A stretch of 64,000 nucleotides of DNA from Bacteroidales bacterium. GTDB lineage: Bacteria; Bacteroidota; Bacteroidia; Bacteroidales; JAADJA01. The position numbers and the translations under genes were made by a program. Below the pieces are notes generated by a model. It had not been told where the DNA came from. It made no database searches and worked only from the letters and a program-made list of their open reading frames with translations. Shown in pieces: positions 2,415 to 47,933 of this stretch. How positions within the stretch are numbered: position 1 is the stretch's first letter; the number at the start of each line of letters is the position of its first letter. The stretch spans positions 41,833-105,832 of the forward strand of contig JAWKKM010000018.1 in assembly GCA_041393255.1 (NCBI GenBank), written 5' to 3'.

Positions 2415-4800
2415 TTGATATGGGTGCCTATGAAGCCTTATTCCATTGAAAGTGGTTTGGTAGGCCATTATCCATTCAATGGCAACGCCAATGATGAAAG
2501 CGGTCTTGGCAACCATGGGGTAGTAAGCGGGGCAAGCCTGATTACGGACCGCTTTGGATACACCGATGCTGCCTACCAATTTGATGGAATTGATGATATC
2601 ATTACCATAACAGATGATCCAAGTTTAAATTCACCCGAGTTTACCGTCTCAGCATGGTTTTATCAGGAAGGAGAAGGAGGTTATCCAAGGATTGTGGATA
2701 AATTTAAATATTTATCAGAAGAAGGCTATGGCCTCGTGCTTAATGATGCCAACGACCAGCTTCGGGCAGAGCTGTATGACAATACAGGTACACACCAAAC
2801 CATTGAATCAGGCAGCAGTATACCTTCCAATTCGTGGGTCCATGGTGCCTGCACCTTTGATGGGGAAATACTTTCGGTTTATGTGGACGGCATGCTGGCT
2901 GATCAATTAGCTGTAAATACTCCCCTGCAACAAAGCAGCAAGGATATCACCATTGGCAATGGAAACGATGAAACCCAGGATCATCCATTTACCGGAATCA
3001 TTGATGATGTACGTATCTACAATCGTTCATTAATTGAAGAGGAAGTTTACGCTATGTATAATAGCTGTACCTTTAAACTTAACCTGCCTGATACCATCAT
3101 GACCTGCCACGAGGATTCGGTTTTATTGGAACCCGGTGCAGGATTTGTGAGGTACCTCTGGAGCACCGGCGATACCACATCAACTTTGTATGCAAGAGAA
3201 ACCGGCACTTATTATGTGGATGTGACGGATAGTAATGGTTGTACCGCAACTGATTCAACTTATATAAATCTGATTAACGTTTTTATTGAGCAGGAGGATT
3301 TGGACATTGTGTATGGGGATAGTGTTACATTAACACTTGGCTCAAGTTCATTTATTGAGGATGGATTGGTTGGCTATTGGCCATTGAATGGGAATGCAGA
3401 TGATGAAAGTATAGTCGGAAATCATGGAGTAGTAAATGGAAGTATACTTGCAACCGATAGATTTGGAAATGGTAATAGCTGCTATTATTTTGATGGTCAA
3501 AATGATTACATTGAAATACCAAGCAATATAAAAGATTTAGGTGTTTCCAATGAATACACAATTTCTTTTTGGGTTTATTGTGAGAGCGGTTCGGGACATT
3601 TTATGCTTCTTGAAGATGAATCACAATATTACAATGGAGGCAGTTACTTCGGATTAAAACCTCAGGATAATCAGGTTTCTTTCCAGATAACAACGAGCAC
3701 TGGAAGAACAGCAAACGACAACATTGATGTCCCTGCTTTTGCAGGTTCATGGAGTTTTCTTCTCTATCGTTTACACTGGCAGTCAGATTGAACTTAAAAT
3801 GAACTTAAATACTGTTTATTCATTTGCAAAAACAGGAAACATCTCAAATGGAAATAGAAACCTTCGAATTGGATATCCAACAGGAGAACAGTATTTTAAT
3901 GGTTATTTTGATGAATTAATGATTTATAACCGTGCCTTAAACAACAATGAGTTGGAGTTTATATATTATGATTTGCTCGGAAATTATTCATATTTATGGT
4001 CTACCGGCGACACAACCACCTCAATCACAGTTTCACCAGAACAATCCACAACATATACAGTTGAAATATCGGATGGTGTTAACTGGTGTACAGATACTGT
4101 TCATGTTCGGGTGCTTCATGAAATTGAAGTGGACATGAAAGTATACCTTCAAGGTCCTTACCTCGGAACGGGTATGATTCAATTCCTGAACTTGTTTGGA
4201 TTTATTCCAAAAGAACAACCATACAGTGGTTCACCCTGGAACTATTCAGGTATTGACACAGTTTCACAAATACCGAATACTGACATTATCGATTGGGTAC
4301 TTGTAGAATTAAGAAATTCAACTGATGGCCTATATGGTGCAACAGAAAATATGCGTGCAAGTAGAAAAGCAGCTTTTATGAATAAGAACGGGTTTATAGT
4401 CGATACATCTGGAAACAATTATTTGAAAATGTTGGTTGAGGATACAACACTCCTTTACCCAATGATTTACCACCGCAATCACCTGCCAATTTTTTCATCA
4501 AGTGAATTTATCCTAGTAAACGGTGTTTATACCTACGATTTCACAACAGGGCCGGAAAAAGTTTACGGAGGAGCAACAACATGTACCGAATTAAGTCCTG
4601 GTGTATGGGGAATGATTGGTGGCAATGCCCTACCCGATAACCAGATTGATAACCTGGATAAAAACGAAGCATGGCTACTTGAAATGGGAAGCAATGGATA
4701 CTACAATGGAGACCTAAATATGAATGGGACTGTTGAAAATACGGATAAACAAAACATTTGGGCACCAAATGCAGGAAAAGGAAGTAAGGTTCCGGAATAA
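2415..4800 (+). CDS. LamG / concanavalin A-like lectin domain repeat protein (ORFs 2415..3791 and 3724..4800 joined by a 1-nt shift)
   Basis: LVG(H/Y)(Y/W)P(F/L)NGNA(N/D)DES..GNHGVV.G....DRFG......FDG.(D/N)D.I occurs twice (aa from 2460 and 3360), the typical LamG_3 N-terminus. YLWSTGDTT(S/T) repeat occurs at ~3160 and ~3995. The two ORFs join if the T4 run at 3755-3758 is read as T3 (..GSWSFFSIVYTGSQIEL..). Probably continuous with the preceding beta-helix ORF (see findings). Confidence 0.7.
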
Positions 4801-4982: not shown

Positions 4983-4990
4983 TACCTTTG
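4983..4990 (+). promoter_or_regulatory. Bacteroidota -7 promoter box (TAnnTTTG)
   Basis: tacctttg, 20 nt upstream of the ATG at 5010. Matches the TAnnTTTG consensus of Bacteroidota primary-sigma promoters. Confidence 0.45.
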
Positions 4991-5009: not shown

Positions 5010-6257
5010 ATGGACCGAAAAGCATTGCTGGAAGTGATATACGACCAGAAAAACATGCGCTGGAGCAGCGATTATTTATCGCGTGCAGCGTCTTTAAATT
5101 TAACAACCGGTAATCAAATAGAAGTGATATCCGGAATCAGGAGAAGCGGAAAATCAACCGTACTGAATGAAATACGCTTCATGAATGAGGAAAAGGATTA
5201 TTACATGAATTTTGACGATGACCGCTTGCTCCATTTCAAAGTTGATGATTTTCAGTTGTTGTACGAGCTTTTCATTGAGCTTTTTGGGGAGCAAAAAACC
5301 TTCTATTTCGATGAAATACAAAACATCGAAGGCTGGGAGCGTTTTGTCAGAAGGCTGCATGATTACGGCAATAAAATATACATCACCGGATCCAATGCAA
5401 GGCTGCTGAGTTATGAACTGGGAACCCATCTCACAGGTAGGTATACCGCCAATGAGTTGTTCCCGTTTTCATTTCACGAATATCTGAAAACCAACAAAAT
5501 AACTGTTAGCGAAGATATTATTTTCACTACGGCAGGCAAGGCAACATTGAAAAAGCATTTTTTTGAATACATGGCAAACGGAGGCTTCCCTGAGTATTTG
5601 AAAAATAAAAGCACAGAATATTTAAAATCGCTTTACGAGAGCATTCTGTATCGAGATGTACTGGTACGCAATAAGCTGGTCAGCGAAAATGAGATGCGGG
5701 AGCTGGTTTTCTTCCTGTCGAGCAACCTGGCCAGGCCGGTGACCTTTAACAGTCTCTCAAAATCGATCGGGGTGAAGAATGCCAGCACGGTTAAAAATTA
5801 TCTTCAATTTTTAGAAAATTCTTATCTCATTTTTCAGATTGGTAAATTTGATTACTCGGTCAGAAAGCAAATGTTCAATCCGAAGAAAGTCTATTTCATA
5901 GATAATGCGCTTGTTTCGCGCATGGGTTTTCATTTTTCGGAAGATAAAGGAAGGTTTTTAGAAAACATGGTTTTTTTAGAGCTGAAGCGAAGAGGATTTG
6001 AAGTTTTCTATCATAAGGGACAAAAAGAATGTGATTTTATTTTAAGGGAAGGCAAAAAAATAACATCTGCCATCCAGGTTTCCGTTTCGTTGAATGATAC
6101 AAAAACAAGAGAGAGGGAAATTACGGGAGTAAGGGAAGCTATGGACGCTTACCAGTTAACTGCTGGATTAATTTTAACAGAAGATGGCGAGGAAACAATA
6201 ACAACAAATAATGGAACCGTTGATGTCCTGCCGGTTTGGAAATGGTTGTTGACGTAA
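5010..6257 (+). CDS. AAA+ ATPase (AAA_14 N-terminal domain plus DUF4143 C-terminal domain family)
   Basis: Intact 415-aa ORF. Walker A GIRRSGKST, Walker B-like FYFDEIQ, and a C-terminal ..KVYFIDN(A/G)L.. segment characteristic of the ATP-binding DUF4143 family. Confidence 0.8.
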   Translation: MDRKALLEVIYDQKNMRWSSDYLSRAASLNLTTGNQIEVISGIRRSGKSTVLNEIRFMNEEKDYYMNFDDDRLLHFKVDDFQLLYELFIELFGEQKTFYFDEIQNIEGWERFVRRLHDYGNKIYITGSNARLLSYELGTHLTGRYTANELFPFSFHEYLKTNKITVSEDIIFTTAGKATLKKHFFEYMANGGFPEYLKNKSTEYLKSLYESILYRDVLVRNKLVSENEMRELVFFLSSNLARPVTFNSLSKSIGVKNASTVKNYLQFLENSYLIFQIGKFDYSVRKQMFNPKKVYFIDNALVSRMGFHFSEDKGRFLENMVFLELKRRGFEVFYHKGQKECDFILREGKKITSAIQVSVSLNDTKTREREITGVREAMDAYQLTAGLILTEDGEETITTNNGTVDVLPVWKWLLT

Positions 6258-6633
6258 ATGTTGCCTATCAAAGAAAAGTCCATCACTGATTGTCAGCGAC
6301 GGGTATTATAGCCTGATCATCCATCAATTTTTCACTTTTGTATTGCCAGGATAAAATGGGTTAAGTATAAGGCTGCCTTATTATCCCCTTTTAGTCCTTT
6401 CTATTTTTTTTAATTATTTCGAAATATAATTGGCTTACATAGTCGATTAAATTGCGTCAGATTCAACAAAGAAAAATCATAAATTTCTAACTGATTCCGA
6501 GCTCAATTGGAGGGATTACAGGGGTTTTATTCTCCACTTTTTTGTTGATAATAAAAATATTTTATCACTAATAATCCGCTGCTCTGAGTCGGGGTCGTTC
6601 AATTTTTATTCCGGCAGGATCGATTTTTCTTAA

Positions 6634-6663
6634 CCATGACATTTTAGAGAGGTGCTGTATTCA
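6634..6663 (+). promoter_or_regulatory. Promoter-like motif copy a (ccATGACAtttt-N12-TATTCA)
   Basis: ATGACA at 6636-6641, 16-nt spacer, TATTCA at 6658-6663. One of four copies of the same motif. Confidence 0.45.
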
Positions 6664-6688
6664 TTCATAAAATTAACAATACAGCACA

Positions 6689-6841
6689 ATGGAAAACATC
6701 ATCAACATCCTGATAAATTTCGCCTCACAAACAGCAATCTTAAATTTAGCCAATAAACTGAGTTTTGTCTATTCAAGCGTTTTACTAAAAGTGATGAACA
6801 ATCAACAGGCTGCATTTCAAATACTGGATGTTTTTTTATAA
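6689..6841 (+). CDS. Hypothetical small protein (50 aa)
   Basis: ATG 25 nt after motif a. ORF MENIINILINFASQTAILNL...DVFL translated by hand (below the ORF-track cutoff). No homology evidence. Confidence 0.2.
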   Translation: MENIINILINFASQTAILNLANKLSFVYSSVLLKVMNNQQAAFQILDVFL

Positions 6842-6859
6842 AAAAATAATTTTATCAAA

Positions 6860-6889
6860 CTATGACATTTTCAAGTACCAGGGTATAAA
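6860..6889 (+). promoter_or_regulatory. Promoter-like motif copy b (ctATGACAtttt-N12-TATAAA)
   Basis: ATGACA at 6862-6867, 16-nt spacer, TATAAA at 6884-6889. Confidence 0.5.
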
Positions 6890-6915
6890 TAGAAAAACGA
6901 CAAAACAACAATAAT

Positions 6916-7083
6916 ATGAAAACAACAGAGATACAATCGATTCCGGCAATGGGTTTTAAAAAGAGACATTTTTTCCTGATCATGGGGATTATTGCTATCA
7001 TTCTTTTACAATCATGCGAAAATTTTCATAAAAAACAACAGGTATATTCGAATGATTTCCAATTGACATTATGCAATGCGTGA
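6916..7083 (+). CDS. Hypothetical small lipoprotein (55 aa)
   Basis: Hand translation MKTTEIQSIPAMGFKKRHFFLIMGIIAIILLQSCENFHKK... has a hydrophobic segment ending in lipobox-like LLQSC. Preceded by motif b and followed by the terminator at 7153. Confidence 0.4.
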   Translation: MKTTEIQSIPAMGFKKRHFFLIMGIIAIILLQSCENFHKKQQVYSNDFQLTLCNA

Positions 7084-7152
7084 CCAGATTATTGCCATGA
7101 AAAAATATTAAGCACAGGAAAAGAAGAAAATAAACCAGAATTTTTGTGCCCG

Positions 7153-7183
7153 GGAGACGCTTATTATGAGCGTCTCTTTTTTT
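7153..7183 (+). terminator. Rho-independent terminator
   Basis: 8-bp stem gagacgct/agcgtctc, 7-nt loop, T8 run at 7176-7183. Confidence 0.75.
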
Positions 7184-7241
7184 TGAAAGTAAACATAACC
7201 ATATCAGCATTTCAATAATTAAATAATAAAAATCAATTACA

Positions 7242-7271
7242 CCATGACATTTTCATTCTCATGGGTATTTA
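7242..7271 (+). promoter_or_regulatory. Promoter-like motif copy c (ccATGACAtttt-N12-TATTTA)
   Basis: ATGACA at 7244-7249, 16-nt spacer, TATTTA at 7266-7271. Confidence 0.5.
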
Positions 7272-7306
7272 TTCCTGAAAAATGTTTAACGTAAAAATCT
7301 TATATT

Positions 7307-7933
7307 ATGAAAACAAAAGTACAATTATCCGTAATTGCCATTTTAATAGCAATGCAAGCCATTTCGCAATCTGACCTGAAAAATTACAGTGGAACAGCCA
7401 AAGTTCATTACAATGATGGAAGGGTTTCTAAGGTAAATCTCAAAACCATTAATGATTCTCTTTACTACACCCAACTTGACGCTTATGGCTGGCAAAGACA
7501 AATTTCAATTGATATTCGAAAGGTTGAAAAAATAGAAATTCCGAAGTTCAACCCTACTTCCTTTTTCATTGGTGGTGCGGCAGGCGCGGCAGTAGGAGTT
7601 GCTACAATATTAATTGTTGAGTCAAATTATGAAAGAACCAGACAGGGGTCTCCTCCTGATGAGATTCCATGGCATTGCGATGGATATGAGTCAGTTAATG
7701 AGTATGATAACGGGAATCTTGTTAAGAGTGAATATAAAATGACAATGGCCTTTGCACCAAAGTTCTTAATGTTTGCAGGTTCTACAGGGCTCGGGCTACT
7801 TATTGGTAGTGCTATAAAAAAATGGGTGCCATTTTACCCAATTGATGATAAAACTAAAATTGGATTTAAATGCGGAGTGGGTGTTAATAGATATACCGGA
7901 AATATGGAAATCCAACTATCTTATAATTTTTAA
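7307..7933 (+). CDS. Hypothetical secreted/membrane protein (208 aa)
   Basis: Intact ORF with an N-terminal signal peptide (MKTKVQLSVIAILIAMQAISQS) and two Gly/Ala-rich hydrophobic segments. Flanked by motif c and the terminator at 7971. Confidence 0.6.
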   Translation: MKTKVQLSVIAILIAMQAISQSDLKNYSGTAKVHYNDGRVSKVNLKTINDSLYYTQLDAYGWQRQISIDIRKVEKIEIPKFNPTSFFIGGAAGAAVGVATILIVESNYERTRQGSPPDEIPWHCDGYESVNEYDNGNLVKSEYKMTMAFAPKFLMFAGSTGLGLLIGSAIKKWVPFYPIDDKTKIGFKCGVGVNRYTGNMEIQLSYNF

Positions 7934-7970
7934 AATGAAAAGTGTCCATCCAGGCCTATAATTTCCAAAA

Positions 7971-7999
7971 AACCGGAGGCTTTTAGCTTCCGGTTTTTT
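7971..7999 (+). terminator. Rho-independent terminator
   Basis: 10-bp stem aaccggaggc/gcttccggtt (one G-U pair) followed by T6. Confidence 0.75.
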
Positions 8000-8016
8000 A
8001 CTTTTTTCATAACTGA

Positions 8017-8046
8017 CCATGACATTTTAATATTAGCCGGTATTTA
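8017..8046 (+). promoter_or_regulatory. Promoter-like motif copy d (ccATGACAtttt-N12-TATTTA)
   Basis: ATGACA at 8019-8024, 16-nt spacer, TATTTA at 8041-8046. Confidence 0.5.
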
Positions 8047-8079
8047 TAATTATTAATGTTTAACCTAAATTTTAATACG

Positions 8080-8532
8080 ATGAAAAATTTAAAAATCAAA
8101 ACAGTAGGTCTATTATTAATTTCAATTATGGTAATGATTTTTACTGGTTGCAGTAAAGATGACGACAACAATGTACAACCAAATGAAGCTTCACCTGATT
8201 TGAAATTCATTGGAAGCTGGAGCGGTACAACAAGTCAGAATAAATCAATTAGCTTTTCGATAGAAAATATTGATGGAAAAGCAATAGTGACTTCTTACAC
8301 ACTACAGGCACATGTTTCAGGAGGTGGCTGGAGTGCATCAGAGACAAAATGGGGAACAATAAATGCCCAGGTTTCAAATGGTAGCTTTTCATATGCCTCA
8401 GGGAGCATTGAATTATCCGGAGTGTTTTCCGGATCAGGTAGTGTTTCCGGCAAATTTAAAACTATTTCACAAGGACCTCCAGGTTATGGGGATGGAACTG
8501 CTTCAGGTTCCTATACGGCTGATAATCTCTAA
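8080..8532 (+). CDS. Hypothetical lipoprotein (150 aa from the internal ATG; ORF track starts at 8056)
   Basis: MKNLKIKTVGLLLISIMVMIFTGCSKDDD is a signal peptide with a lipobox Cys. The mature part is Gly/Ser-rich. Confidence 0.6.
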   Translation: MKNLKIKTVGLLLISIMVMIFTGCSKDDDNNVQPNEASPDLKFIGSWSGTTSQNKSISFSIENIDGKAIVTSYTLQAHVSGGGWSASETKWGTINAQVSNGSFSYASGSIELSGVFSGSGSVSGKFKTISQGPPGYGDGTASGSYTADNL

Positions 8533-8588
8533 TCAATATTATTCCTCGCAAAGAAAATTGTTATTTGAGAATATTCAGAGTAGTAAAA

Positions 8589-8609
8589 AGGCGTTATTTT
8601 CTAACGCCT
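8589..8609. terminator. Possible bidirectional terminator hairpin between convergent genes
   Basis: 8-bp stem aggcgtta/taacgcct flanked by A4 upstream and TTT downstream. Overlaps the last codons of the minus-strand CHAT gene. Confidence 0.35.
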
Positions 8610-10888
8610 TTTCGCTTGTAAATAAATAGCCCTATTCCTAACAAGAATATAATCAATAACGAAATAGTGAATGATATACCTATTGAATAATCACTTTCCA
8701 TGGGTGAACTATCGCCGATCAAAACATAACCTGCCCAATAGCGAGGATGAATTTTTTCAGGATTTTTTGTATTGGCAAGATAATCCAATTTTGCTGATCG
8801 AAGGGCTTCATCTTTTGGTTTACCAACCTTTAAATAACCGTAAAAACTGCTCATAAGTTCAGCGCTTGATTGGTCATCTACACTCCAAAGGGTCATCACG
8901 ATACTGGGAACACCTGTATATAGGAATCCACGAGCCAGGCTCATCACCCCCTCGCTTTTATGAATTTTCCCCATTCCGGTATTACAAGCACTTAAAACCA
9001 CTAATTGAGCATTGATTTGTTTTTCAAATAATTCATAAGTGTGCACTTCACCATCGTAAAGCGAATCTTCAGGGCTCTTCTGAAAAAGCAATTTAGAGTA
9101 GGAGGGATTTTCATCATCAATAATTCCATGGCTGGCAATATGGATAATATTGTAGTCACCTGATGATACCCAAAACCTCTTTTCAGTGGCTGTACTGTCA
9201 AAATAAATATCAGTATTATATAGCTTTGATATGGCTTTTACTTCATTGCTGGCTCCTGCAAGCTCCATTTCGTCAATTCCCCTTTCGCGTAAAAGACTTA
9301 ATGTGCTTTGGTCATATTGGGCAGTCAGTTCCTTGGAGAAAGGAGCAAAAGCCAGGGCCTCACGATTATTTGCATCAGAACCCCTATTCTTTGAATAACC
9401 ATAGAGTGTAGCTGAATACGCATATGAAATCGGATGCTTTTTAATGAGCCAGGGTAAATCAGAATAATCCGTACCCTGAGTCGGTATTTGTTGTGAAATT
9501 AAGGCTTCAACCGGAATATACCCAATTTCTTTGTCAGGAATTATGATAAGCTCCTTATCGCTAATTTGATTTTCTAAAGGTTGAATTAATACCAGGTACA
9601 ATTTGTGGGATATATCTAAATAATTTCTCCAATCGGTTGAATCCAATTGTCTTTTTATGTTCAAATCCCTGAATTCATTGATTAATAAAACAAATGTGCT
9701 ATCAATTGAAATTTTGCTGAACATTGAATTTTGTTTCGCAACTGTAAAAACAAATAAAGTTGTATCACCCAATGCGTATTCTATCAGAATTTGTTTTTCG
9801 GATAAATTGGCTCTTAGTTCTGATAATGATATTACGCTTGTATTGTATTTCAAATCATAATAATCACTGTAATTGTTTTCAAGCATTTCCTTAAAGCGAT
9901 TGTATTCCATTTTAAGGTCAAACAGTTCGTTTTCAAGGCTGGATAACTCAAGACTGTCAAAAGCATCTATGTTTTGAAGTTTATCCAAAATATTATCTTC
10001 AACCAGGTTTATCTTTTGCCTGAGTTGCCTTTCATGTATTTTATTTTCTTCAGGTATACTTTCACCAGCTAAAGCCAGTATTTCCATTATACTCTCAAAC
10101 AACAATTGTGATTTTCCACTTTCAGCTATTGAAAAAGCGCTTTCAAGGTTTTTGTTCCCAAACAATTCAAAATGAAGAGAAAGTGCACCGCTATAGATAT
10201 CAGAAAAATCATTGTAAAGCCTTAGCCTGGTTACTTCATTTTTATAATCTCGTGTAATAAAAGGGATATTATTTATACAAGAAAGATATAAATTATAGGA
10301 CTCTTCCAAATCTTTATAATCTAATGAGTTATAAATATATCTCTTGTAAAAAGCCTTCGCTTTGCCTTTAATTAGGTCAATAAAGGTTTTGTCCAACAAT
10401 ACTTTATTTGTTGTTATGTCTGGAATACTGAAAATATCTTCCGAATCAAAACCGGGTGCAATGGCAATTAATCCCTTATGATAGGATTCAATTGCTTCAT
10501 TAAAAGCTTCTTCTTTACGGTAAATATCTCCCATATGCAAATAGCACATTGCAATTTGATTGTGATTGCTGCCATAATATTCGGAATAAATTTTTGCAGC
10601 TTCCGAAAAGTAATTAATTGCTTCAACATTATTATTCATTAATTTATAAACCATTCCAGAATGGTAATAATAAGAAGCAATATCAGGATGTGATGAAGAA
10701 TACTTTTCCAACCTTTTTGCCAAACACAAATCCAAATAATAAAAGGCTGAATCAAAATTATTTAGCCTGGACCAGGCAATTCCCATATTTAATAAATGGC
10801 TTGTATTGCTTTTATTGATTCTTTCTGCCTGATTGAAATATACCAACGCTTCTTCGTTCCTTCCGAGGTTAATTAAAGCTGCGCCCAT
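8594..10888 (-). CDS. TPR repeat plus CHAT (caspase-like) domain protein with a C-terminal transmembrane anchor
   Basis: 764-aa ORF. N-terminal TPR-like repeats. The C-terminal CHAT signature has a His/Cys dyad context (..IIHIASHG.. and ..LVVLSACNTG..). Terminal hydrophobic helix ISFTISLLIIFLLGIGLFIY. The gene continues upstream in other frames (next feature). Confidence 0.8.
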   Translation of the reverse strand: MGAALINLGRNEEALVYFNQAERINKSNTSHLLNMGIAWSRLNNFDSAFYYLDLCLAKRLEKYSSSHPDIASYYYHSGMVYKLMNNNVEAINYFSEAAKIYSEYYGSNHNQIAMCYLHMGDIYRKEEAFNEAIESYHKGLIAIAPGFDSEDIFSIPDITTNKVLLDKTFIDLIKGKAKAFYKRYIYNSLDYKDLEESYNLYLSCINNIPFITRDYKNEVTRLRLYNDFSDIYSGALSLHFELFGNKNLESAFSIAESGKSQLLFESIMEILALAGESIPEENKIHERQLRQKINLVEDNILDKLQNIDAFDSLELSSLENELFDLKMEYNRFKEMLENNYSDYYDLKYNTSVISLSELRANLSEKQILIEYALGDTTLFVFTVAKQNSMFSKISIDSTFVLLINEFRDLNIKRQLDSTDWRNYLDISHKLYLVLIQPLENQISDKELIIIPDKEIGYIPVEALISQQIPTQGTDYSDLPWLIKKHPISYAYSATLYGYSKNRGSDANNREALAFAPFSKELTAQYDQSTLSLLRERGIDEMELAGASNEVKAISKLYNTDIYFDSTATEKRFWVSSGDYNIIHIASHGIIDDENPSYSKLLFQKSPEDSLYDGEVHTYELFEKQINAQLVVLSACNTGMGKIHKSEGVMSLARGFLYTGVPSIVMTLWSVDDQSSAELMSSFYGYLKVGKPKDEALRSAKLDYLANTKNPEKIHPRYWAGYVLIGDSSPMESDYSIGISFTISLLIIFLLGIGLFIYKRKGVRK

Positions 10889-12131
10889 ATTCCCAAAGGC
10901 AAGACCAACATAAATGTGCTCTTCACCGTAGGCTTCCAGGTAAATTGTCGCAGCTTTTTTGTAGTTCTCTAAGGCCTGCGCAAAATCACTTTATACACAC
11001 ATACTGCCCATATTTAAGTAGGAATTTCCTATAGCCGGGCTGTTTTCTGGCATATCTCTCAATCGAATATTTAAAGCGCTTTTATAATATTTTGCCGAAG
11101 AATCGAAATCCATTAATTCTCCATACACAACTCCCAGATTTTCACGTGAATGCGCAGAATTAATGTGCATATATCCCACGCCGAATCATACAGATGTATA
11201 TTTTTTTTATAATAGTCAATTAGTTTTTTAAAAAATCACCTTGAATTATAAATTATCCCCAGTAAATTATAGGATTGGCCCTCATAAAAAGCACTGTGTA
11301 TGCCCCTTGCTTATTCGAATGTTCTCATTGATATAAAAAAGGGCAGAATCCTGCATATTTGAATTCATATAATGTACCGCCAAACTTTCATAAAGTTCTT
11401 GAATGATATTATATGAAACAGAGTCATATCTTCTTGTAAAGAAAGAGCCCTCATCAAGTAAATTTTTGAAGAGTCAACTTTGAATAAAAGGCTATACACT
11501 TGCCGATCTGAATATTCCCCTTTAATAAGTTCTTCATAATATTGATTTGTATTTGAGTCATAAAATTCCAGGTTTGTTCGAAAACACTTTATTGCATCAT
11601 TATATTTTGCCAATTCCTTATATGACAGGCCCTTTCGATCCAATACGATACTATAAAGTTGTTGATAGGCAAGACCATTCAGTTCCAATATGGATAAAGA
11701 AGAATCATAATAAATTATTGACTCCTGATAATCACCTTTATTATAATTGATTTTTCCCTCATTTGAATACCACATGGCCAAATTTCTATCAGTACGTGAA
11801 AGGTTCTTGAAAATAAACTCCTTTGTACCAATTTGAGAATGACGAGCTTTATCAAGTGAATCATATTCAATCAATATTCTGGTGATTTCATTTTGAAATA
11901 TGCGCTGCTATCCATATTTCCATTTTTGTTACAACTCAATATGAGCATTTGATAATAATACAATAAACTGTCAACATTATCTTCCCTTTTCATAAAACTT
12001 GGCTAATTCAAGGAATTGGTTGTGCTCATTAAGATGTTTTTGAGAGTATAAATTGATAAGAAGAAACAAGATGAAATGGTTATGAAGAACCAGGACAGTA
12101 GTTGTTTATTTATCCTAAGCTTGATTGTCAT
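10889..12131 (-). pseudogene. N-terminal TPR region of the TPR-CHAT gene, split into several frames
   Basis: ORFs 10991..11179 and 11365..11874 are TPR-like (..NLGVVYGELMDFDSSAKYYKSALNI..). A putative start ATG at 12129-12131 gives MTIKLRINKQLLSWFFITISSCFFLSIY (signal anchor). At least four frame changes are needed to join these to 8594..10888. Confidence 0.5.
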
Positions 12132-12204
12132 TCGATTTTGAATATTTGAAAGTATCATCAACCCTAAATCATTGGTATAAAGTAAAAAATTATATATAAG
12201 AATA

Positions 12205-13242
12205 ACGCGTTGTGCGGTTTAATTAGCCAGCGCATATTTTAAATGATTTAATGGTTTATCGTTCTTTAAATTCATGAATTGGTAGCAAAGTAACCCCTGT
12301 AATCTTAGACAGGATACGGACTGACAATCCAAGCAATGTCTTAGCATACAGGTAAAGCTTTTGAGCATAAACTGATCGCACAATTGTGCAAACAATGTTT
12401 CACCTCGTTTCCTGACTTTTCTGAAGGTTACAGAGTATGGTTTGTAGTCTTTTTGGTTAGCTCACGGAGTTTGCAGATTTACCTGACATGAAGTAAATAA
12501 GTCCAGTTGATGGCAGATAAATATCCTTTATCGGCAAGTAGTGTGCAAGTTGTTAAGCCTGATTGTTTTACCTCTGTCAAATAATGAACATCATGTACAC
12601 TTGCCTTGGTCAGGTCCATGCTGTGAAAGATGCCTCTTGGACCGAAGTAAGTGCAGTTTGTAACCATAAAAGTAGTTTTGCTTACGGCTGAATATCCTTT
12701 ATCAGGAGCTGTTTCAAAGGTCTCTTTGCATACTTTACTTTGTTTTTCCCGGCGTAGTTTTTGCAAACGGGGATGGGGATCGAGTCCAATAACATAAACA
12801 TTTTCTCCATCATTGAGCCTGGAAGCAATTGTTTGGTTGAGTTGCTCAATCAAAGGATACAACCTTTTCTGCTTTGGGTTAAAATTGCTGCGATCAATTA
12901 AGTTGGGAAAGTCTTTGGTATGATCGCTTTTGAGCCTTACCCCAATAGTAGTTTTCACTATCAATACTAATGGTTTCTGTAATAGCCAAAGCAATAATCT
13001 GACAGTCAGACATCTTTTGGTTTATTACGGTAGATGAAAAATTGTCAAACGAATCAATACGATTTATAAATATGGATTTGGTGATGTTAAAAAACTTGTC
13101 GAAATTTGATTTTAAGTTATGCATAATAGAAGTATAATTGTGGTGATTTTTACTTCTAAGATATTGAATATCTGTATTATGCATAGCTTTTTTACTATTT
13201 TGTTTCAACATTCTTTTTAACATTTCAAACCGCACAAGACGT
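12205..13242 (-). mobile_element. IS982-family insertion sequence (1038 bp) with 8-bp target site duplication
   Basis: Terminal inverted repeats ACGCGTTGTGCGGTTT (12205-12220) and the reverse complement of AAACCGCACAAGACGT (13227-13242), 14/16 identical. Flanked by direct repeats TAAGAATA at 12197-12204 and 13243-13250. Transposase fragments 12894..13235 and 12479..12994 carry IS982-type text (..KMSDCQIIALAI..IDSENY.., ..FPNLIDRSNFN.., ..DKGYSA..F.V...DLTKASVHDVHYL..LLADKGY). The reading frame is broken at least twice. Confidence 0.85.
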
Positions 13243-14411
13243 TAAGAATAGTATTAATTAAACTGGCGATTCTGTCTGGTATAAAATGTTAATCAACAAT
13301 GGATGGATATAAATTATTAATAATAAAAAGCAAAGGAAGGGTTTACATATTCTAATAAATAATCCATACAATATATTATCAACCCTTTAATAGATCCAAG
13401 ATTTCCTATACTTCATCCCCAAAAACCCCACCCTTTAGACAATAAGTCAAGAATTAGAACAAATTTATTCGCTTCAGTTTGGTCGTTTCAATCAAACCTT
13501 ATATTTTAGACGATTCAAACTAAGAACAGCCATTCTGTGAGGTTGCCAAGATTTCTAAACAATAAAAATTATCTTAAACAAGGGAGGTTATAATGAAGAA
13601 AATTCTATTACTCAATTTGTTCCTTTATTTACAGCAGTATTACTCACCGCCCAAAACAATCCACCGGTAGCAGTTTCGATACCGTAACCATTATGGCAGA
13701 AGACTGGGTTGACATTGAAGTACTGCTAAATGATTATGATCCGGATGGTGACAATATTGAAATTAATAATGTAAAGAATCCTAAACACGGTGATCGAGAA
13801 TATAATGACACATTAGCCCAATACCGTTCAGATTATTACATAGGCCCTGATTCCATGGAATACAGGATTAAAGACGACGGAGATCCCACTGAACGTTCTG
13901 AATACACTTATATTTATATCAATGTTCTGGAAAATCCGACTTACCTTGCTGAGAATGATAGCATTGTAACAATTTTCAGAATGCCAATTGAATGAAGTTG
14001 ATAATGATATCGATCCAAACGGTGATGAAATGGAAATCCTGGAAATTACGCGATACCCCTACTTTGGTGATGTCTACATCAATTCCGATTCCACCTGGTA
14101 TATACTTCAGATACCTACTTTTTGGGGGAAGATTATAGGGAATATACAGTAATTGAGAAAATACATCAAATCAGTACTTTTTCAAATAAGGCTTCTCGTT
14201 AAGATCACCGTAAATGAAAATCCAGACATACCGGTTGCTAATGAAGATGAAGCCTTCAACAATTACATTTGAACCTATGGATATTTGTCTTACAAATGAT
14301 TCAGATCCAAATGGGGGATGAATTGATGGTGGAAGATGCGATGTTTCTATAAATAGTGTTGTAGAAGTTGTATCCGACTCGGTTGTTCGATATTATTCAA
14401 AATATTTTATT

Positions 14412-15321
14412 GAAGTTGTTTAAAGTTGACGTAATAAAATAACGCAAAAAGCTAATATATTCAATGCTTTCCAATGAATTTTGTTTGTTTCAAAAACGGA
14501 TCAAAATAGCCTTAAATGCATCCAGCCAAGCATTGGTCCTTTCCACAACAAACCTGCATTTGTAGAGTAAACTGTCAAAAAGGTGTTCACTTTCACTACC
14601 GTTTCTTTTATTTTTATCAATATTATCTATTATATCATTCCTGTACAGAAAGCACGAAAGCTCTCTATATCAAACCCTGCATCGGCATTCAGGAATAGCC
14701 AGTTCATCCTTACGTTTGAAGAACGCAGGTTTTCAAACATATTCTCCACGAACTCTTCCACTGGATACGCATCATTATGTTCTCCTGAAATAGCTTCACT
14801 GCAGGCCAGCGGGATACCCTGCTATCTGTCAGCACAAGCATGTTAAGCTGGTCTTCGCCTTTTTCCTGCCTTGGTAGCCTACTGCCTGTCCGCCCTTTGA
14901 TGGGGTGTGTGCCATCAAGCTGAACACTTGATAAATCAAGTAGATCCCGATATGCCCCTTCCAGAATATGTCCTGCAGGCTCTTTCCTAACTACCATCTT
15001 TTGACCACTTCGAAAGTGATGATAGACACTTGCCCAACCATACTTACCCCTAAAAAATTGCTTCATTGGGAGCTGTCTCCATTGACATCCTGTTTTTAAC
15101 CGGTAAAATTGCTTCAACCACTTGATAACACTTAACCTTGTGTTTTTTCGACCGTTTCCAAATTTCAAATGTGGGCAAATCTCTTTTTTTATTGTACTTT
15201 TACTTAACACGTTTTTTTTTGAACGAATGATACAACTTATTGAAATCCAATTTTTCTGTATCATTCGTTCTTTTAAACATTCGTGTTTAATATCTCTCAT
15301 TTTTTAACTTTTAACAACTTC
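14412..15321 (-). mobile_element. IS5-like insertion sequence, copy A (910 bp), TSD ATT
   Basis: Terminal inverted repeats GAAGTTGTTTAAAGTT / AACTTTTAACAACTTC. Direct ATT at 14409-14411 and 15322-15324. Transposase fragments carry ..LKTGCQWRQLP.., ..LDGTH..K.. and a C-terminal ..ERTNAWL.AFK..L.RFE.. text (seen best in copies B and C), typical of DDE IS5-family (DUF4096-type N-terminus). The frame is broken. Confidence 0.85.
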
Positions 15322-16318
15322 ATTGGGGTTGACACAATACAATATAGAATTAAAGAAAAAACACCAATAATGCTTATGTTTCGGATTGGGCATATATCAT
15401 TGTAAACGTTGATACAAACCCAGATATTCCAGTGGTAATAAGCGATACTGCATCTACATTGGCTTTTGAAACAGTAGAGTTTAATGCCCTCATGAATGAT
15501 TATGACCTCAGGGAGAACCCATTGAAATATGGCAAACACAAATGGGATCAAATCTGGCAGAGATAATTTTTAATGATAGTAATTATCTTATTTACCCTTA
15601 CTGCCTAAAATCGGTTACTATAACATTTAGATACAGAATTAGGGGAAATAAATGATACAACCATCTATTCCAACTGGACAACAGTTGCAACAAATATAGA
15701 TGCTAATCCTGCTCGCATTCCCAGGCGGTTGATGACTACGGTTCAACAACTGCAGGGATTCCAATAACAATTAATTTGATTGAAAATGACATTAATCCGA
15801 TAAATGATACAATCATTGCTGAGGTTATTGGTGATCCACACGGTATTATTGAAATGTTACCCGACAGTATGGTTCGGTATATCCCTGGCTTCAATTTTGA
15901 GGGAATTGACAGTATTGAATACCAAATCAAAAATAGAAATACACCTTCTTTTCCTTACAGTTATGGCTACCTAATTGTTGAAGTGCAATCAAACCAATCC
16001 TATGCAGTACTGGATGCGAACAATATTTCTGCTGGGATAAACTCATATGGTTATTTATTCAACAATATGGATTATGTTCCTGGATATGGTTTTTCAAATC
16101 GCAAACTTAGTTTTGAAGCCCCAGCTGGAAGCGGAATTCATAGTGTTTATTCTTCAACTTTATGGGTTGGTGGATTAAATCAGCAATCACCTACCGACTC
16201 ATTGCATTTTGCGGGTGAAAGATACAGACAGGTGGGGGATGATTATTGGGCAGGGCCTATTTCAAATTCTTATGACGAGGCTTACGATTTAAAATGGAGA
16301 AGATTATGGTAAATCAAT

Positions 16319-24583: not shown

Positions 24584-25231
24584 TCAAAAGCCTTTGTAAT
24601 AAAGCAATATTACAATTACAAAGGCACCAATGCTCAAGAAAATTAACAAACGAAAATCCTCCGTAATAAAGCAAAAATTGTATAAGGCATGAAAAAAGGA
24701 TGCCCCGAACAATCCAGTCATGGAATCCACAAATTTATTTTCACGGGATTTAGCTATCCCTACAAAAAAACCAAGAATGACTGCAAAAAACAGATTTGCA
24801 GGAACAACTGATATTGCATACCGGAAATCCACTTCGGTGTAATAGGGCAAAATCATATAAAGTACATTCCCTACAAAAGCAAAACCCATGGAAAGCATTA
24901 CACTGTATACAATACTATCCAGGGGCCCGTTAAAACTATCCCGGGGGAAAATATGATACCTTAAGAGCAAATACTTTCCTAGTTCAGAACCAAATCCCAT
25001 AACAAAAAAGGAATAGAAAATAATTCTTCTTATATTCTTGAAATCATCGAGTCCATATCGTTGGGCTATTATTTGAAATATCAGCACGACAACAATGCTA
25101 AGCATCCCCAAAACAAAAGCTGTTATAAGTCCGGGATAACGTTTTCTGCCCCGTTTCGACCAAACCAACCATACAATAAGAGCGGCAATTAACGGCCCGA
25201 GCAGTAAAGATATTAGGTAATTAATTATCAT
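24584..25231 (-). CDS. PrsW-family-like intramembrane protease / multi-pass membrane protein
   Basis: Intact 215-aa ORF with 6-7 TM segments, a ..GFGSELGKYLL.. (E-x-x-K-like) motif and a ..FFHALYNF.. (HxxxN) motif. Confidence 0.5.
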   Translation of the reverse strand: MIINYLISLLLGPLIAALIVWLVWSKRGRKRYPGLITAFVLGMLSIVVVLIFQIIAQRYGLDDFKNIRRIIFYSFFVMGFGSELGKYLLLRYHIFPRDSFNGPLDSIVYSVMLSMGFAFVGNVLYMILPYYTEVDFRYAISVVPANLFFAVILGFFVGIAKSRENKFVDSMTGLFGASFFHALYNFCFITEDFRLLIFLSIGAFVIVILLYYKGF

Positions 25232-28104: not shown

Positions 28105-29592
28105 ATGCTACATCAACGATTACAACAAAAACTTCTACAAAAGCTTTCTCCACAGCAAATTCTGCTCATGAAGTTGTTGCAAATTCCTACGATTGCCCTT
28201 GAACAGAGAATAAAACAAGAAATTGAAGAAAACCCTGCCCTTGACGAAACGGATGATCTGGAAGAAGCAGCTGAACTGGAAATGGAATACGATGCTCCAT
28301 TGGATTCGGATGAGAAAGATGCTGATGTCGAAGAAGAGTACGATTCCAAAAGCAATGATGAAGAATTTGACCTTGATGATTACCTTGATGATGACGATAC
28401 ACCCTCCTACAAGTTAAACTCCAACAATTCAAGTTCCGATGATGAGCGATATGAAGTCCCATTTGTTTCTGGTACAAGCTTTCAGGAGTTGCTCCTGTCG
28501 CAATTAGGCTTGCGTAGTTTGAATGAGAAACAGCTCTTGATTGCAGCCTATATTATTGGAAACCTCGATGATTCGGGATACCTTAACAGGGATGTGGGTG
28601 CGATGGTAGACGATCTGGCATTTTCGCAAAACATACAGGCTACCAAAGATGAGATACTTGAAATGCTTTACCTGATCCAGGAATTTGAACCTCCCGGTGT
28701 TGGTGGCCGAAACCTGCAGGAATGCCTTTTGATTCAATTGAGAAAAAAGGAGAACCAGTCCAAAGCCATCGAACTTGCTATGCATATCCTCGATCGTTAT
28801 TTTAACGAGTTCACAAAGAAGCATTACGAAAAGATAATTAAAAAAGCCAGGATATCCGAGGAGGAGTTAAAAGAAGCCATCGAAGAGATTTTAAAATTAA
28901 ACCCCAAGCCCGGAAATTCGTTAAGCGAAACCACTAAAACGAATCACTACATTCTTCCTGATTTCCTCATTTATAATAATAACGGGGATTTGGAATTGCA
29001 ACTCAACTCAAAAAACACACCTGAATTGAGGCTCAACCGCACCTATGTTGACATGCTCGAAACCTATTCGCACAGCAAAAACAAGAGTAAACACAAAGAT
29101 GCGATTACCTTCGTTAAGCAAAAAATAGATTCGGCCAAATGGTTTATTGATGCCATTAAACAGCGACAAAACACATTGGAGATCACCATGCAGGCCATTA
29201 TGGAATACCAGCGGGAATATTTCCTGACCGGTGATGAAACCCGGCTCAGGCCGATGATCCTGAAAGACATTGCCGAAATCGTCAACCTTGATATTTCAAC
29301 CATCTCAAGGGTGGCCAATAGCAAGTATGTTCAAACCCCGTTCGGCACATTTTTGCTTAAAAGTTTCTTTTCCGAATCCATGCAAAATGAAAACGGTGAA
29401 GAAGTTTCAACCCGGGAAATTAAGAAAATATTATCCGATTGCATTGATGTTGAAGACAAGTCGAAACCGGTTACGGATGAACAGCTTACAAAAATCCTAA
29501 AGGAAAAAGGCTACAACATTGCACGCCGGACGGTTGCCAAATACCGTGAGCAATTGAACATTCCGGTCGCACGCTTACGAAAAGAGCTTTAA
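28105..29592 (+). CDS. rpoN: RNA polymerase sigma-54 factor
   Basis: Intact 495-aa ORF. N-terminal Q/L-rich region I (LQQKLLQKLSPQQ), an acidic linker, and the C-terminal RpoN box ..ARRTVAKYRE.L.IP.. Confidence 0.92.
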   Translation: MLHQRLQQKLLQKLSPQQILLMKLLQIPTIALEQRIKQEIEENPALDETDDLEEAAELEMEYDAPLDSDEKDADVEEEYDSKSNDEEFDLDDYLDDDDTPSYKLNSNNSSSDDERYEVPFVSGTSFQELLLSQLGLRSLNEKQLLIAAYIIGNLDDSGYLNRDVGAMVDDLAFSQNIQATKDEILEMLYLIQEFEPPGVGGRNLQECLLIQLRKKENQSKAIELAMHILDRYFNEFTKKHYEKIIKKARISEEELKEAIEEILKLNPKPGNSLSETTKTNHYILPDFLIYNNNGDLELQLNSKNTPELRLNRTYVDMLETYSHSKNKSKHKDAITFVKQKIDSAKWFIDAIKQRQNTLEITMQAIMEYQREYFLTGDETRLRPMILKDIAEIVNLDISTISRVANSKYVQTPFGTFLLKSFFSESMQNENGEEVSTREIKKILSDCIDVEDKSKPVTDEQLTKILKEKGYNIARRTVAKYREQLNIPVARLRKEL

Positions 29593-44218: not shown

Positions 44219-45745
44219 CTACTCCAGAGAACCTACTTCCTTTTCAACTTCTTCAAGGATTTCACAGGACTCTATTAATGCTTTCATTTTGTTGTGGTCA
44301 TCAAACAAGGGCCGGTCAATGTCAAGAAATTCAACGTGCCTGCGAACCACTTCTTTAGCTTTGGCAACACCTTTACCAAAATTATATTCCCTAAAATCCA
44401 ATGCCTGGGCCGCAGCCATTATCTCTATTCCCAAAATTCCATAAGCATTGTCAAGTATCTGGAAGTTCTTGATGGCAGTATTCATTCCCATTGAGACAAA
44501 AATCTTCCTGGTCGGCTGCTGCCGGAATGGATTGTATGGAAGCCGGAGTTGACAATATGCGTTGTTCGACGATCATCATGTCAATTGTATACTGGCTCAG
44601 CATAAGGCCTGAAAACATGCCTGCACCTTTTTGTTAAAAATGCCGGAAGCCCAACACTCAATGCAGGGTTGTTCAAGCGGTTCATCCTTCTTTCCGACAT
44701 CACACTTACCATGGTGATGGCAGCTCCTGCCATATCCATAGGCAGGGAAACGGGTGTGCCCTGGAAATTGGCTCCCGAGAGGCTGTAAATTTTCATCCGG
44801 GAAAAAAACCGGGTTATCGCCTACTCCATTCAATTCAATCTCCACTTGAGAGCGGGCATAAGCCAGTGCATCATGAGCAGAGCCAATCACTTGCGGTGAC
44901 GATCGCATGGAATAGGCATCCTGGACTTTATGAGGTACCCGGCCCTCTTTCAGATCGCCACCCTGAACCAATTTATTAATGGCATTGGCACTTCGGATAG
45001 CTCCCTTAAACCCACGTACTTCGTGCAGTTTTGATGTATAAGGTTTCATATTTGCTTTCAGTGCTTCAAGCGACATGGCAGCTCCAATCTCAGCCTGCTT
45101 AAGCCATCGGTTGGCATCGTAAATAAATAAAGCACTCATTGCGGTTAGGACATTGGAACCATTGATGGTAGCCAGTCCATCCCTTGCCTGCAATCCGGGG
45201 ATTTCGATACCCGCTTTGTCCATGGCTTCCTTTCCGGTATAAAGCTCACCTTTATAGTAAGCCCTTCCTTCACCCATCATGAGCAAGGCAATTTGCGACA
45301 TCGGTGCCAAATCTCCGGAAGCACCTACAGAGCCTTTGCGGCAAACCCAGGGGGTAACTCCCTTATTCAGCATTTCAACCAGAGTCAGGGTTATTTCCGG
45401 ACGAACACCCGAATTGCCGTGAGCGTGAACATTGACCCTGCCCAGCATGGCACCACGGACATGGTCTAACGGCATGGGCTCACCAATACCGGCTGCATGG
45501 TTATAAATTAAATACTTTTGAAAATCCTTTACCTGATCATCGTTCAGAACAACTTCTGAAAACTCGCCAATGCCGGTATTAACTCCATACATGATCTCTC
45601 CGGCCTGGATTTTTCTTTCGAGCATGGCCCTGCATTTTTTTATTCTTTCCAATGCATCGGGATGCAGTTCGACTTTTTCATTTTTACGGGCTACATTTAC
45701 TACATCTTCAATGGTCATACCCGCACCTTTTACTATATATGTCAT
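44219..45745 (-). CDS. MIO-dependent aromatic amino acid/histidine ammonia-lyase family protein (divergent paralog; at least 3 frameshifts in the 3' third)
   Basis: ORF 44597..45745 has ..GSVGASGDLAPMS.. (the Ala-Ser-Gly MIO triad), ..YNHAAGIG.., ..INGSN.., ..QDAYS.R..PQV.G... Fragments 44581..44796 (..SGANFQGTPV...) and 44219..44491 (..AAQALDFRE..) complete the fold. Confidence 0.75.
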
Positions 45746-46410: not shown

Positions 46411-47933
46411 TTATAATTGGTATTTATCGGGGTCTTCGTTTGGCAATACAAGCCTGACCTCTCTTAAATAATCGATGGAGGCTTGAATATCCTTATACAT
46501 GATCTGGTCTTCATCAATAAAAGAAACCTTTGTCCTATAGCCTTTTAGAAATTCCTCAAGGAAAGGCGAGGTTTTGGATGGCCTCCTGAATTCAAGTGCC
46601 TGAGCTGCATTGAACAGTTCTATCGCCAATATGCGCTCCAGGTTTTCCAACACCTTAAAAGCTTTTGTGGCCGAGTTTGCTCCATACTAACATGATCCTC
46701 CTGTCCTTTGAGGATTCAATAGAGTCGATGGAGGAAGGGTGTGCATAAATACTTGTTCTGGTTTACGATGGAAGCCGCAGTGTATTGCGGTATCATGAAA
46801 CCGGAATTCAATCCTGGGTTTGCAACCAAAAAAGGCGGCAATTTTCTGGCGCCCGATAATAATTGATACGTCCTTCTTTCTGAAATGTTCCCCAACTCGG
46901 CCATAGCAATACTCAGGTTATCCAATGCCAATGCCAGGGGCTGTCCATGGAAATTACCCGCTGAAATGATCAAATCTTCATCCGGAAAAATAGTTGGATT
47001 ATCAGTTACCGAGTTTATTTCTTTTCGAAAAACATATGCCACATAATTAATGGAATCTTTAGAAGCACCATGAACCTGCGGTATGCACCTGAATGAATAG
47101 GGATCCTGCACATGTTCTTTGTATTGATGGATCAATTCACTTCCTTCCAGAATATTATTTATCCGCTCTGCTGTTTTCATCTGGCCTTTGTGTGGACGAA
47201 CTACCTGAATTAATTTATGAAAAGGTTCGATCCGGCCATCAAATGCATCCAGCGAAATGGCCCCGATTACATCTGCCAAACGGGAAAGTTTGAAAACCCT
47301 CAGGCAATTGTAAACGCCGTATGCACTCATAAACTGGGTACCATTCAACAATGCCAGCCCTGCCTTTGATTTCAATTCAATGGGTTTCCAGTTCAATTTC
47401 TTCAGGATGGAGCCAGCCTCAGCTTTTTTACCTTTATAATACACCTCACCCAGGCCCAGCAACGGAAGTGACAAATGTGCTAGAGGGGCAAGGTCGCCGG
47501 AAGCACCCAGAGAACCCAACTGATAAACAACGGGAATGATATCATGATTGTAAAAATCAACCAGGCGTTGAACCGTCTCAAGTTGAACTCCCGAATGTCC
47601 GTACGACAAGGACTGGACTTTCAACATCAGCATCAGCTTGACAATCTCCTGAGGAACTTCATCTCCCACCCCACAGGCATGCGACATCACAAGGTTCTTT
47701 TGCAAAGTGCTTAAATCCTCCTTTGAAATGGTATGGTTATACAATGCGCCAAAGCCGGTATTGATCCCATAAATGGGTTCCGTTTGCGATTCCATTTTCC
47801 GATCAAGGTAATTGCGGCACTTTACAATGTTTTGTTTGGATTCATCCGATAGCTCAATCTTTTTCTTTTGCTTAATGATCTGATCAATATCTTCAAAGTT
47901 GAGCAATTCGGAGCTGATGAAATGAGTTGCCAT
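46411..47933 (-). CDS. hutH: Histidine ammonia-lyase (three 1-nt frame changes clustered at ~46650-46720)
   Basis: ..NLVMSHACGVGD.. (the Ser-His selectivity pair of HAL), ..GSLGASGDLAPLAHL.., ..LLNGTQ.., ..VQDPYSFRCIPQVHGA.., ..NFHGQP.., then in other frames ..SSIDSIESSKDQEDHVSMG.. and ..AAQALEFR... Confidence 0.85.

Follow-up and report, generated by a model that had tools for sequence, protein, structure and literature searches.

A conserved bipartite promoter-like signal upstream of four small envelope-protein genes suggests a lineage-restricted alternative sigma regulon in a Bacteroidales bacterium

A 64,000-nucleotide stretch of a Bacteroidales contig (GenBank assembly GCA_041393255.1, contig JAWKKM010000018.1, positions 41,833 to 105,832 of the forward strand; the whole stretch is referred to below as the window, and position 1 is its first letter) contains an array of four small genes, u1 to u4, each preceded by the same bipartite sequence, which we designate P1 to P4. 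These four sites are very probably promoters, a function that we infer from the motif, its fixed geometry and position, its conservation in an orthologous module, the terminators that accompany the genes and the absence of the usual Bacteroidota promoter box. Together with their genes they probably form a small lineage-restricted regulon in which an alternative sigma factor drives the production of tiny envelope proteins. It may well be that the sites are read by an alternative member of the sigma-70 family, most probably one of the extracytoplasmic function (ECF) type, and not by the housekeeping sigma-A. The window bears other marks of the Bacteroidota, namely type IX secretion system (T9SS) sorting domains and SusC/SusD genes. 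The four sites are as follows:

6633..6663, + strand: promoter-like site P1, consisting of ACCATGACATTTT (6633-6645), a 10-nt spacer and TGTATTCA (6656-6663)
6859..6889, + strand: promoter-like site P2, ACTATGACATTTT-N10-GGTATAAA, 18 nt past the u1 stop
7241..7271, + strand: promoter-like site P3, ACCATGACATTTT-N10-GGTATTTA, repeat family D1
8016..8046, + strand: promoter-like site P4, ACCATGACATTTT-N10-GGTATTTA, repeat family D1

A preliminary description of this DNA had reported the 10-mer ATGACATTTT at 6636, 6862, 7244 and 8019, each copy followed by a TAT hexamer 16 nt from ATGACA and, 25-35 nt later, by an ATG. Our recount agrees on all of these points. The 10-mer is found four times in the 64 kb, on the + strand only; the hexamers at sites 1 to 4, located exactly 16 nt past ATGACA, are TATTCA, TATAAA, TATTTA and TATTTA respectively, and the gaps between the TAT box and the ATGs at 6689, 6916, 7307 and 8080 are 25, 26, 35 and 33 nt. 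Conservation beyond the hexamers had also been noted, and the conserved block proves longer than first stated, as alignment of the four sites gives the consensus ACYATGACATTTT-N10-KGTATnnA, starting at 6633, 6859, 7241 and 8016. All four copies of this consensus are intergenic, lie on the + strand and fall within 1.4 kb, which bears out the idea of a position- and orientation-specific promoter-like signal before four unrelated small genes. The boxes are identical among the sites, while the 10-nt spacers and the flanks are unrelated, with identity at the random level.

Chance does not readily account for this arrangement. In dinucleotide-preserving shuffles of the window ATGACATTTT occurs on average 0.88 times, and four copies are reached in 1 of 100 shuffles; the pattern TGACA-N15-GTAT matches the four array sites alone in the window, with 0.48 matches expected. 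Relaxed searches of both window strands with ACATTTT-N10-12-GTAT and ACAnTTT-N10-12-GTAT return no extra site. A second short-read assembly (X1), made independently from this wastewater sample, covers most of the array and is identical to the window at 6653-7619, 7808-8029 and 8086-8773, with zero differences.

The genes downstream of the sites are as follows:

6689..6841, + strand: u1, a 50-aa hydrophobic helical small protein, no signal peptide
6916..7083, + strand: u2, a 55-aa small membrane protein or lipoprotein, with an N-terminal transmembrane (TM) helix ending in the lipobox-like LLQSC
7307..7933, + strand: u3, an orphan of 208 aa that has a signal peptide plus two hydrophobic segments rich in Gly/Ala
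8080..8532, + strand: u4, a 150-aa orphan lipoprotein with the lipobox FTGC, predicted to be all-beta

Further insight comes from an orthologous module in L064, a 4.3-kb marine-sediment contig with near-identical DNA in marine-sediment and hydrothermal-vent sequencing runs. The order in L064 is the motif, a 50-aa open reading frame (ORF) with 52% identity to u1, a 35-aa ORF and a terminator homologous to that of the window. The 35-aa ORF has 49% identity to the N-terminal part of u2, of which it retains only the N-terminus and the TM helix. The u1 coding DNA of the window and L064 is 64% identical (52% at third codon positions), and the differences at codon positions 1, 2 and 3 number 21, 9 and 24 respectively, a pattern indicating that u1 is a real coding sequence. 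The homology between the two starts approximately 8 nt upstream of the -35 block. When P1 is compared with its L064 counterpart, the -35 block is kept at 13 of 13 positions and GCTGTAT at 7 of 7, with 3 of 8 positions matching in the remainder of the spacer. The L064 u2 promoter is a variant, GTTACATTTT-N9-GGTAT. Strain variants of L064 have zero substitutions at 3874-4016, which covers the promoter and leader, but do differ by substitutions within the coding region of u1 and in the DNA preceding the promoter, although these data are fragmentary and carry low weight.

The four window sites and two L064 sites together give the consensus aCcaTgACATTTT-N11-GTAT..aT. The upstream block is 13 nt long and invariant at 9 positions across all six sites; AC-A-TTTT is invariant in 6/6 sites, as is GTA(T), and the spacing between the boxes is the same in five of the six, being 1 nt shorter at L064 u2. 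As the spacers, flanks and proteins are unrelated and the boxes are kept in L064, it appears from these alignments that the boxes, and not a cassette, are under selection.

The L064 module lies in different surroundings, next to a Sir2-like gene that bears a normal TACCTTTG box, and therefore P-u1-P-u2-terminator behaves as a portable unit of approximately 560 bp. In the model that we favor this would be the core module, present also in a marine-sediment member of the Bacteroidota, with one lineage known from wastewater and the other from marine sediment and hydrothermal vents. Comparison of the two loci suggests that u3 and u4 were added only in the lineage of the window and would there have gained the same type of promoter.

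Two repeat-like features were observed at the L064-type loci. Relative to L064, the strain variant L079 has an insertion of approximately 170 bp (~690-860) that falls exactly in the gap separating the u1 stop from the u2 promoter; with its terminal inverted repeats (CCCGCATTATTCAT ... ATGAATTTTCCGGG) and TTAA duplication the insertion resembles a miniature inverted-repeat transposable element (MITE), and both promoters are intact. On the + strand of L064 at 4160-4351, upstream of the u1 promoter, there are short palindromic units with CCCGCATTGAA-like cores, whose contig depth of up to 225 in hydrothermal-vent metagenomes indicates a MITE-like or repetitive extragenic palindromic (REP)-like repeat of high abundance in that organism or community.

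One of the options raised in the preliminary description was a recently amplified promoter cassette. Its own observation that the coding parts are dissimilar is confirmed, as u1 to u4 are not paralogues (every pairwise E-value is above 7), and with unrelated spacers, flanks and proteins the four sites taken together do not represent recent copies of one cassette. A related proposal is that an ordinary promoter was mobile and propagated locally, being copied in front of neighboring genes, so that the likeness of the sites reflects shared ancestry only. The confinement of all copies to 1.4 kb would suit this, as would the extra blocks shared by P3 and P4, which suggest duplication. However, drift should leave spacers and boxes equally alike, whereas the spacers here are random and the boxes identical, and the boxes are retained in L064, where the orthologous coding DNA has diverged to 64% identity. 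A copied promoter would in any case still require a sigma factor, and the sequence does not fit sigma-A. We consider local propagation distinctly improbable as an explanation of all four sites.

For P3 and P4 on their own the situation is different. In addition to the boxes, these two sites share tca.t.ac..ACC upstream, GGTATTTAT, and a 15-nt leader block, from which we conclude that they probably arose from one another. A duplication followed by drift of the intervening sequence, with retention of three functional blocks, is probably what the present alignment reflects. The leader block is confined to units 3 and 4 and begins 9-10 nt past the TAT box, near the expected +1:

7281..7295, + strand: 15-nt leader block AATGTTTAACnTAAA, unit 3 copy; family D8, 93% identity
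8055..8069, + strand: leader block AATGTTTAACnTAAA, unit 4 copy; includes an ATG (8056) in the u4 frame, an alternative start for u4

The ATG inside AATGTTTAACnTAAA would be nearly leaderless, and in the u3 leader it begins a 30-codon ORF in another frame.

That three of the four carry a signal peptide or lipobox, as described earlier, is borne out, u1 being the one that lacks a signal peptide. Searches of u1 to u4 against Pfam, NCBIfam, PHROGs and PADLOC give nothing beyond signal-peptide noise. No homologue of u3 or u4 is found among 5.8 billion proteins, u3 retrieving itself alone, and single-sequence AlphaFold models of the two have predicted local distance difference test (pLDDT) values of 40-47 (40 for u3 with AF2), too low for the models to be usable. 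The u1 family has two true members only, the window protein and P0003 (52% identity), even when 1.84 billion representatives are searched by HMMER with its filters off. Two further candidates from an all-against-all library, P0005 and P0006, were rejected as repeat-inflated artefacts, and a search of viral contigs with the u1 protein pattern gave no match.

Each of the last three units is followed by a hairpin:

7152..7186, + strand: intrinsic terminator after u2, hairpin 7152-7178, -16.1 kcal/mol, z -3.6, with a T run
7967..8005, + strand: intrinsic terminator after u3, hairpin 7967-7999, -20.7 kcal/mol, z -6.6, with a T run
8586..8612: hairpin terminator after u4, common to the convergent TPR-CHAT gene, -15.6 kcal/mol, z -4.4

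The earlier proposal of four autonomous transcription units thus stands in part. Terminators follow units 2 and 3, as claimed, and also unit 4, but a scan for hairpins and T runs finds no terminator in the 18 nt between the u1 stop and P2, and u1 is therefore probably transcribed on into u2.

These hairpins also bear on whether the sites are promoters at all. The repeats might instead be chance or structural elements, such as a recombination site, an attC, the border of an invertible promoter or part of a small RNA element. The GTTTAAC present in the u3 and u4 leaders does formally fit RYYYAAC, the integron inverse-core pattern. In integron arrays, an attC (a long imperfect palindrome, RYYYAAC...GTTRRRY) follows each ORF and the cassettes are promoterless. 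Here the hairpins behind the ORFs are plain terminators, with short perfect stems and T runs, each unit has its own promoter-like site, and GTTTAAC precedes the ORF, so we rejected an integron array. An invertible promoter was likewise rejected, since none of the four sites is flanked by a pair of inverted repeats, and no Rfam family matches the array region. With chance rejected by the shuffles, and with the placement and direction of the sites with respect to ORF starts, as well as their conservation in the orthologue, fitting a promoter, the chance that the sites are something other than promoters seems very slight.

If the sites are promoters, the question becomes which sigma factor reads them. 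The Bacteroidota sigma-A promoter (-33 TTTG / -7 TAnnTTTG, the latter box lying some 5-12 nt ahead of the start site) is the obvious candidate, being that of the same phylum and in use at housekeeping genes in the window, where TAnnTTTG boxes occur at 4983, 26532 and 45889 as previously described, and at the Sir2 gene of L064. However, there is no TAnnTTTG on the + strand between 6200 and 8700, nor within 150 nt upstream of any of u1 to u4. As the conserved letters and the geometry of the array sites differ as well, we rejected a standard sigma-A promoter.

The sites had initially been labeled sigma70-like, on the model of TTGACA/TATAAT, and this label does not hold. ATGACA does share five of six letters with TTGACA, and TATnnA follows after 16 nt, in place of the N17 and TATAAT of the classical promoter. 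But the last base of the -10 element is A and not T at all four sites, and the G before TAT, the T tract and letters upstream are conserved in addition. T at the last -10 position is near-invariant in classical sigma-70 promoters, and the A found here indicates that these are not true TTGACA/TATAAT promoters. A standard sigma-70 consensus scan reports none of the four array sites, and Bacteroidota are without classical sigma-70 (PMC7366714). A sigma-54 promoter (TGGCAC-N5-TTGCW, -24/-12) was also rejected, as the blocks are 10 nt apart and contain no GG and GC dinucleotides spaced by 12 nt. The window does encode sigma-54 (rpoN, 28105-29592, + strand, directly after asnS), which is coincidental and unlinked to the array.

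An alternative, perhaps ECF-type, sigma had been suggested in the preliminary description, and this is still the most economical reading, given that the sigma-A box is absent and that AC-A-TTTT...xGTA resembles the ECF layout. All six sites have a T tract immediately behind the -35 core, as is seen in some ECF groups, and they show the fixed short spacer and near-consensus identity expected of ECF promoters. Exported and membrane proteins, moreover, are typical ECF output. ECF sigmas melt DNA poorly and require near-consensus promoters (PMC7776599), which would explain why the sites are alike beyond the hexamers.

A different explanation retains sigma-A. In this case sigma-A would read the sites through a -7 box that is weak and non-canonical, and an activator would bind ACCATGACATTTT at -35 in a class II arrangement, so that the conserved block is an operator. 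An operator could account for the length of the upstream block (13 nt, with the nine invariant positions), and ATGnCAT within it is a short palindrome; moreover TATTTATT has TA..T.T in common with TAnnTTTG, and no gene for an alternative sigma was found nearby. Against this, the G (or K) right before TAT and the fixed 10-nt distance (9 nt in L064 u2) are what one would expect of a single bipartite contact by sigma, the L064 u2 variant GTTACATTTT breaks the palindrome and yet retains ACATTTT, each promoter has a single copy of the block with no dyad or repeat, and the TTTG of the sigma-A box is missing in 6/6 sites. We regard an activator acting on sigma-A as unlikely.

It is also conceivable that the alternative sigma belongs to group 3 (sigma-B/F-like), with ATGACA or TGACAT as the -35, GGGTAT as the -10 and a spacer of 12-13 nt. 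The sigma-B-type -10 element is GGGTAT, and 12-14 nt between the hexamers is typical of group 3; GGGTAT occurs at u2 and u3, and the CGGTAT of u4 and CTGTAT of u1 resemble it. The -35 block, however, is unlike GTTTAA, and to our knowledge no group-3 sigma has an established regulatory role in Bacteroidota. The promoter map of Flavobacterium psychrophilum has sigma-A, sigma-54 and ECF-type classes only (PMC9723704), and a T tract beside the -35 is a documented ECF feature (PMC5758882). A group-3 sigma is in our estimation rather improbable.

Returning to an ECF-type sigma, we propose that its domain 4 would bind the (C)nnT-n-ACA block, the adjoining TTTT tract shaping the spacer, and that domain 2 would bind KGTAT, beginning 10 nt past the T tract. 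Transcription would then start some 6-9 nt after TATnnA, giving leaders of approximately 20-30 nt, and the active sigma would produce four short transcripts: u1 (running into u2), u2, u3 and u4.

Several points weigh against assigning the array to an ECF-type regulon. ECF regulons usually contain an autoregulated sigma gene, often next to the site and commonly accompanied by an anti-sigma gene. Among the ORFs scanned (nearly all window ORFs of at least 120 aa, a few of 120-240 aa being omitted, together with the small ones around the array) there is no gene for a sigma-70-family (Sigma70_r2/r4), ECF or anti-sigma protein, rpoN being the only sigma gene. The resemblance of GGGTAT to the -10 of sigma-B/F-type promoters makes the class of sigma uncertain, and there are differences in letters and spacing from known ECF promoters, given at the end of this section. 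The RNA evidence consists of a single wastewater metatranscriptome contig of depth 3 inside u4 (8090-8354), u4 being the only unit so represented; the contig carries no 5' end, its depth is comparable to the patchy coverage on neighboring genes, and it is possibly DNA carry-over; for L064, a search turned up no RNA run. Finally, exact-pattern scans of databases did not extend the set. In 185,579 species genomes the strict motif gives 35 single matches, all within conserved coding sequence and none in promoter context, and in Joint Genome Institute (JGI) metagenomes it gives 43 single matches, of which L064 is the only genuine one, so that a wider regulon is not demonstrated.

The numbers of genome and metagenome matches are about as chance predicts, and a 15-letter version of the motif gives single chance matches only among the matches listed for IMG/VR. 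A match in a flavobacterial gene was rejected, as it lies within coding sequence and has no promoter context. A third of the database matches come from one segment, ACTATGACATTTTCTTCACCAAATGTATA[AG]A, in a protein of approximately 600 aa found in many Nitrososphaeraceae/Nitrosopumilaceae genomes (chance loci of this type include L002, L009, L010, L026, L028, L030 and others).

It is possible, and we suggest it only tentatively, that the array represents a class of promoter new to Bacteroidota, aCcaTgACATTTT-N11-GTAT, read by a lineage-restricted alternative sigma that departs from the AAC/CGT rule of ECF sigmas. This promoter type would travel with the module of approximately 560 bp and its two tiny envelope proteins, orphan neighbors having been recruited to it since.

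The surroundings of the array are as previously described with respect to the flanking families, an AAA_14/DUF4143 ATPase on one side and a TPR-CHAT gene on the other. The ATPase (5010-6257, + strand) is preceded at 4983 by a normal sigma-A box, TACCTTTG, and matches PADLOC PDC-S01, a candidate single-gene phage-defence family, with an E-value of 3.7e-114. The TPR-CHAT gene (8594-12161, - strand) encodes 764 aa with a C-terminal TM segment, and short TPR ORFs precede it in other frames (10991-11179, 11365-11874 and 11871-11993); this region is either a disrupted long gene or an artefact of assembly indels. Fragments of IS4/IS5-type transposases adjoin the gene (region 12479-15300), and the top depth of RNA contigs in the first 20 kb (18-51) is at 14008-14674.

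Metatranscriptome contigs differ from the window by single-base indels at 3753, 14492, 14644, 15291-15583 and 19300, two of which coincide with frame changes in long ORFs (2415-3791/3724-4800 and 18170-19411/19342-21234). The window assembly probably carries homopolymer indel errors, and several apparent frameshifts or pseudogenes may therefore be artefacts. Elsewhere in the window, the - strand carries two closely spaced ORFs for aromatic amino-acid lyases of the HAL/PAL type (44597-45745 and 46716-47933), the first of which is truncated relative to the Pfam model, so that a duplicated or split gene is possible. A PrsW-family intramembrane protease is encoded at 24584-25231 (- strand) and is unlinked to the array; in Bacillus subtilis PrsW is the site-1 protease that activates the ECF factor sigma-W.

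Beyond sigma-A, the promoter classes of Bacteroidota have been charted only poorly. A survey of 99 Bacteroidota genomes counted 2257 ECF sigmas, approximately 23 each (PMC7671368), as against a handful of mapped ECF-type motifs. A six-site consensus under apparent purifying selection offers a handle for finding the cognate sigma and defining a regulon of envelope micro-proteins, and the motif may serve as an orthogonal inducible promoter part in Bacteroidota engineering. The practical importance is modest, as the genes are orphans and the motif is rare in public data.

Among known systems, the closest parallels are ECF promoters. Those of the sigma-W/V/M/X type in B. subtilis have the form tGAAACnTTTt / CGTA or CGTC, and their -35-proximal T tract modulates recognition (PMC5758882). 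The array sites are similarly bipartite with a fixed short spacer, have an ..AC core followed by a free base and a four-T tract, and end in xGTA; in both cases the members are nearly identical and the outputs are envelope or exported proteins. The core of the array sites, however, is GAC (five sites) or TAC (one site) and not AAC, G or T and never C precedes GTA, and the spacing is 1 nt shorter than that of sigma-W in the array and 2 nt shorter in L064 u2. The array also differs in being from Bacteroidota and in having no adjacent autoregulated sigma/anti-sigma pair.

Within the phylum, comparison was by description with two classes. SM6 of F. psychrophilum is, like the array motif, a minority class unlike TAnnTTTG; it is ascribed to ECF sigmas, and its targets include envelope and secretion proteins (PMC9723704). 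It has a CGT box where the array has G/T-GTAT, and was defined from mapped 5' ends, unlike the array. Another non-sigma-A class is PM2 of Bacteroides thetaiotaomicron, whose elements lie around -10 and -30; PM2 is associated with genes of weak expression, and an alternative sigma has been proposed for it (PMC7366714). PM2 is described as near-palindromic, whereas the array motif is not palindromic.

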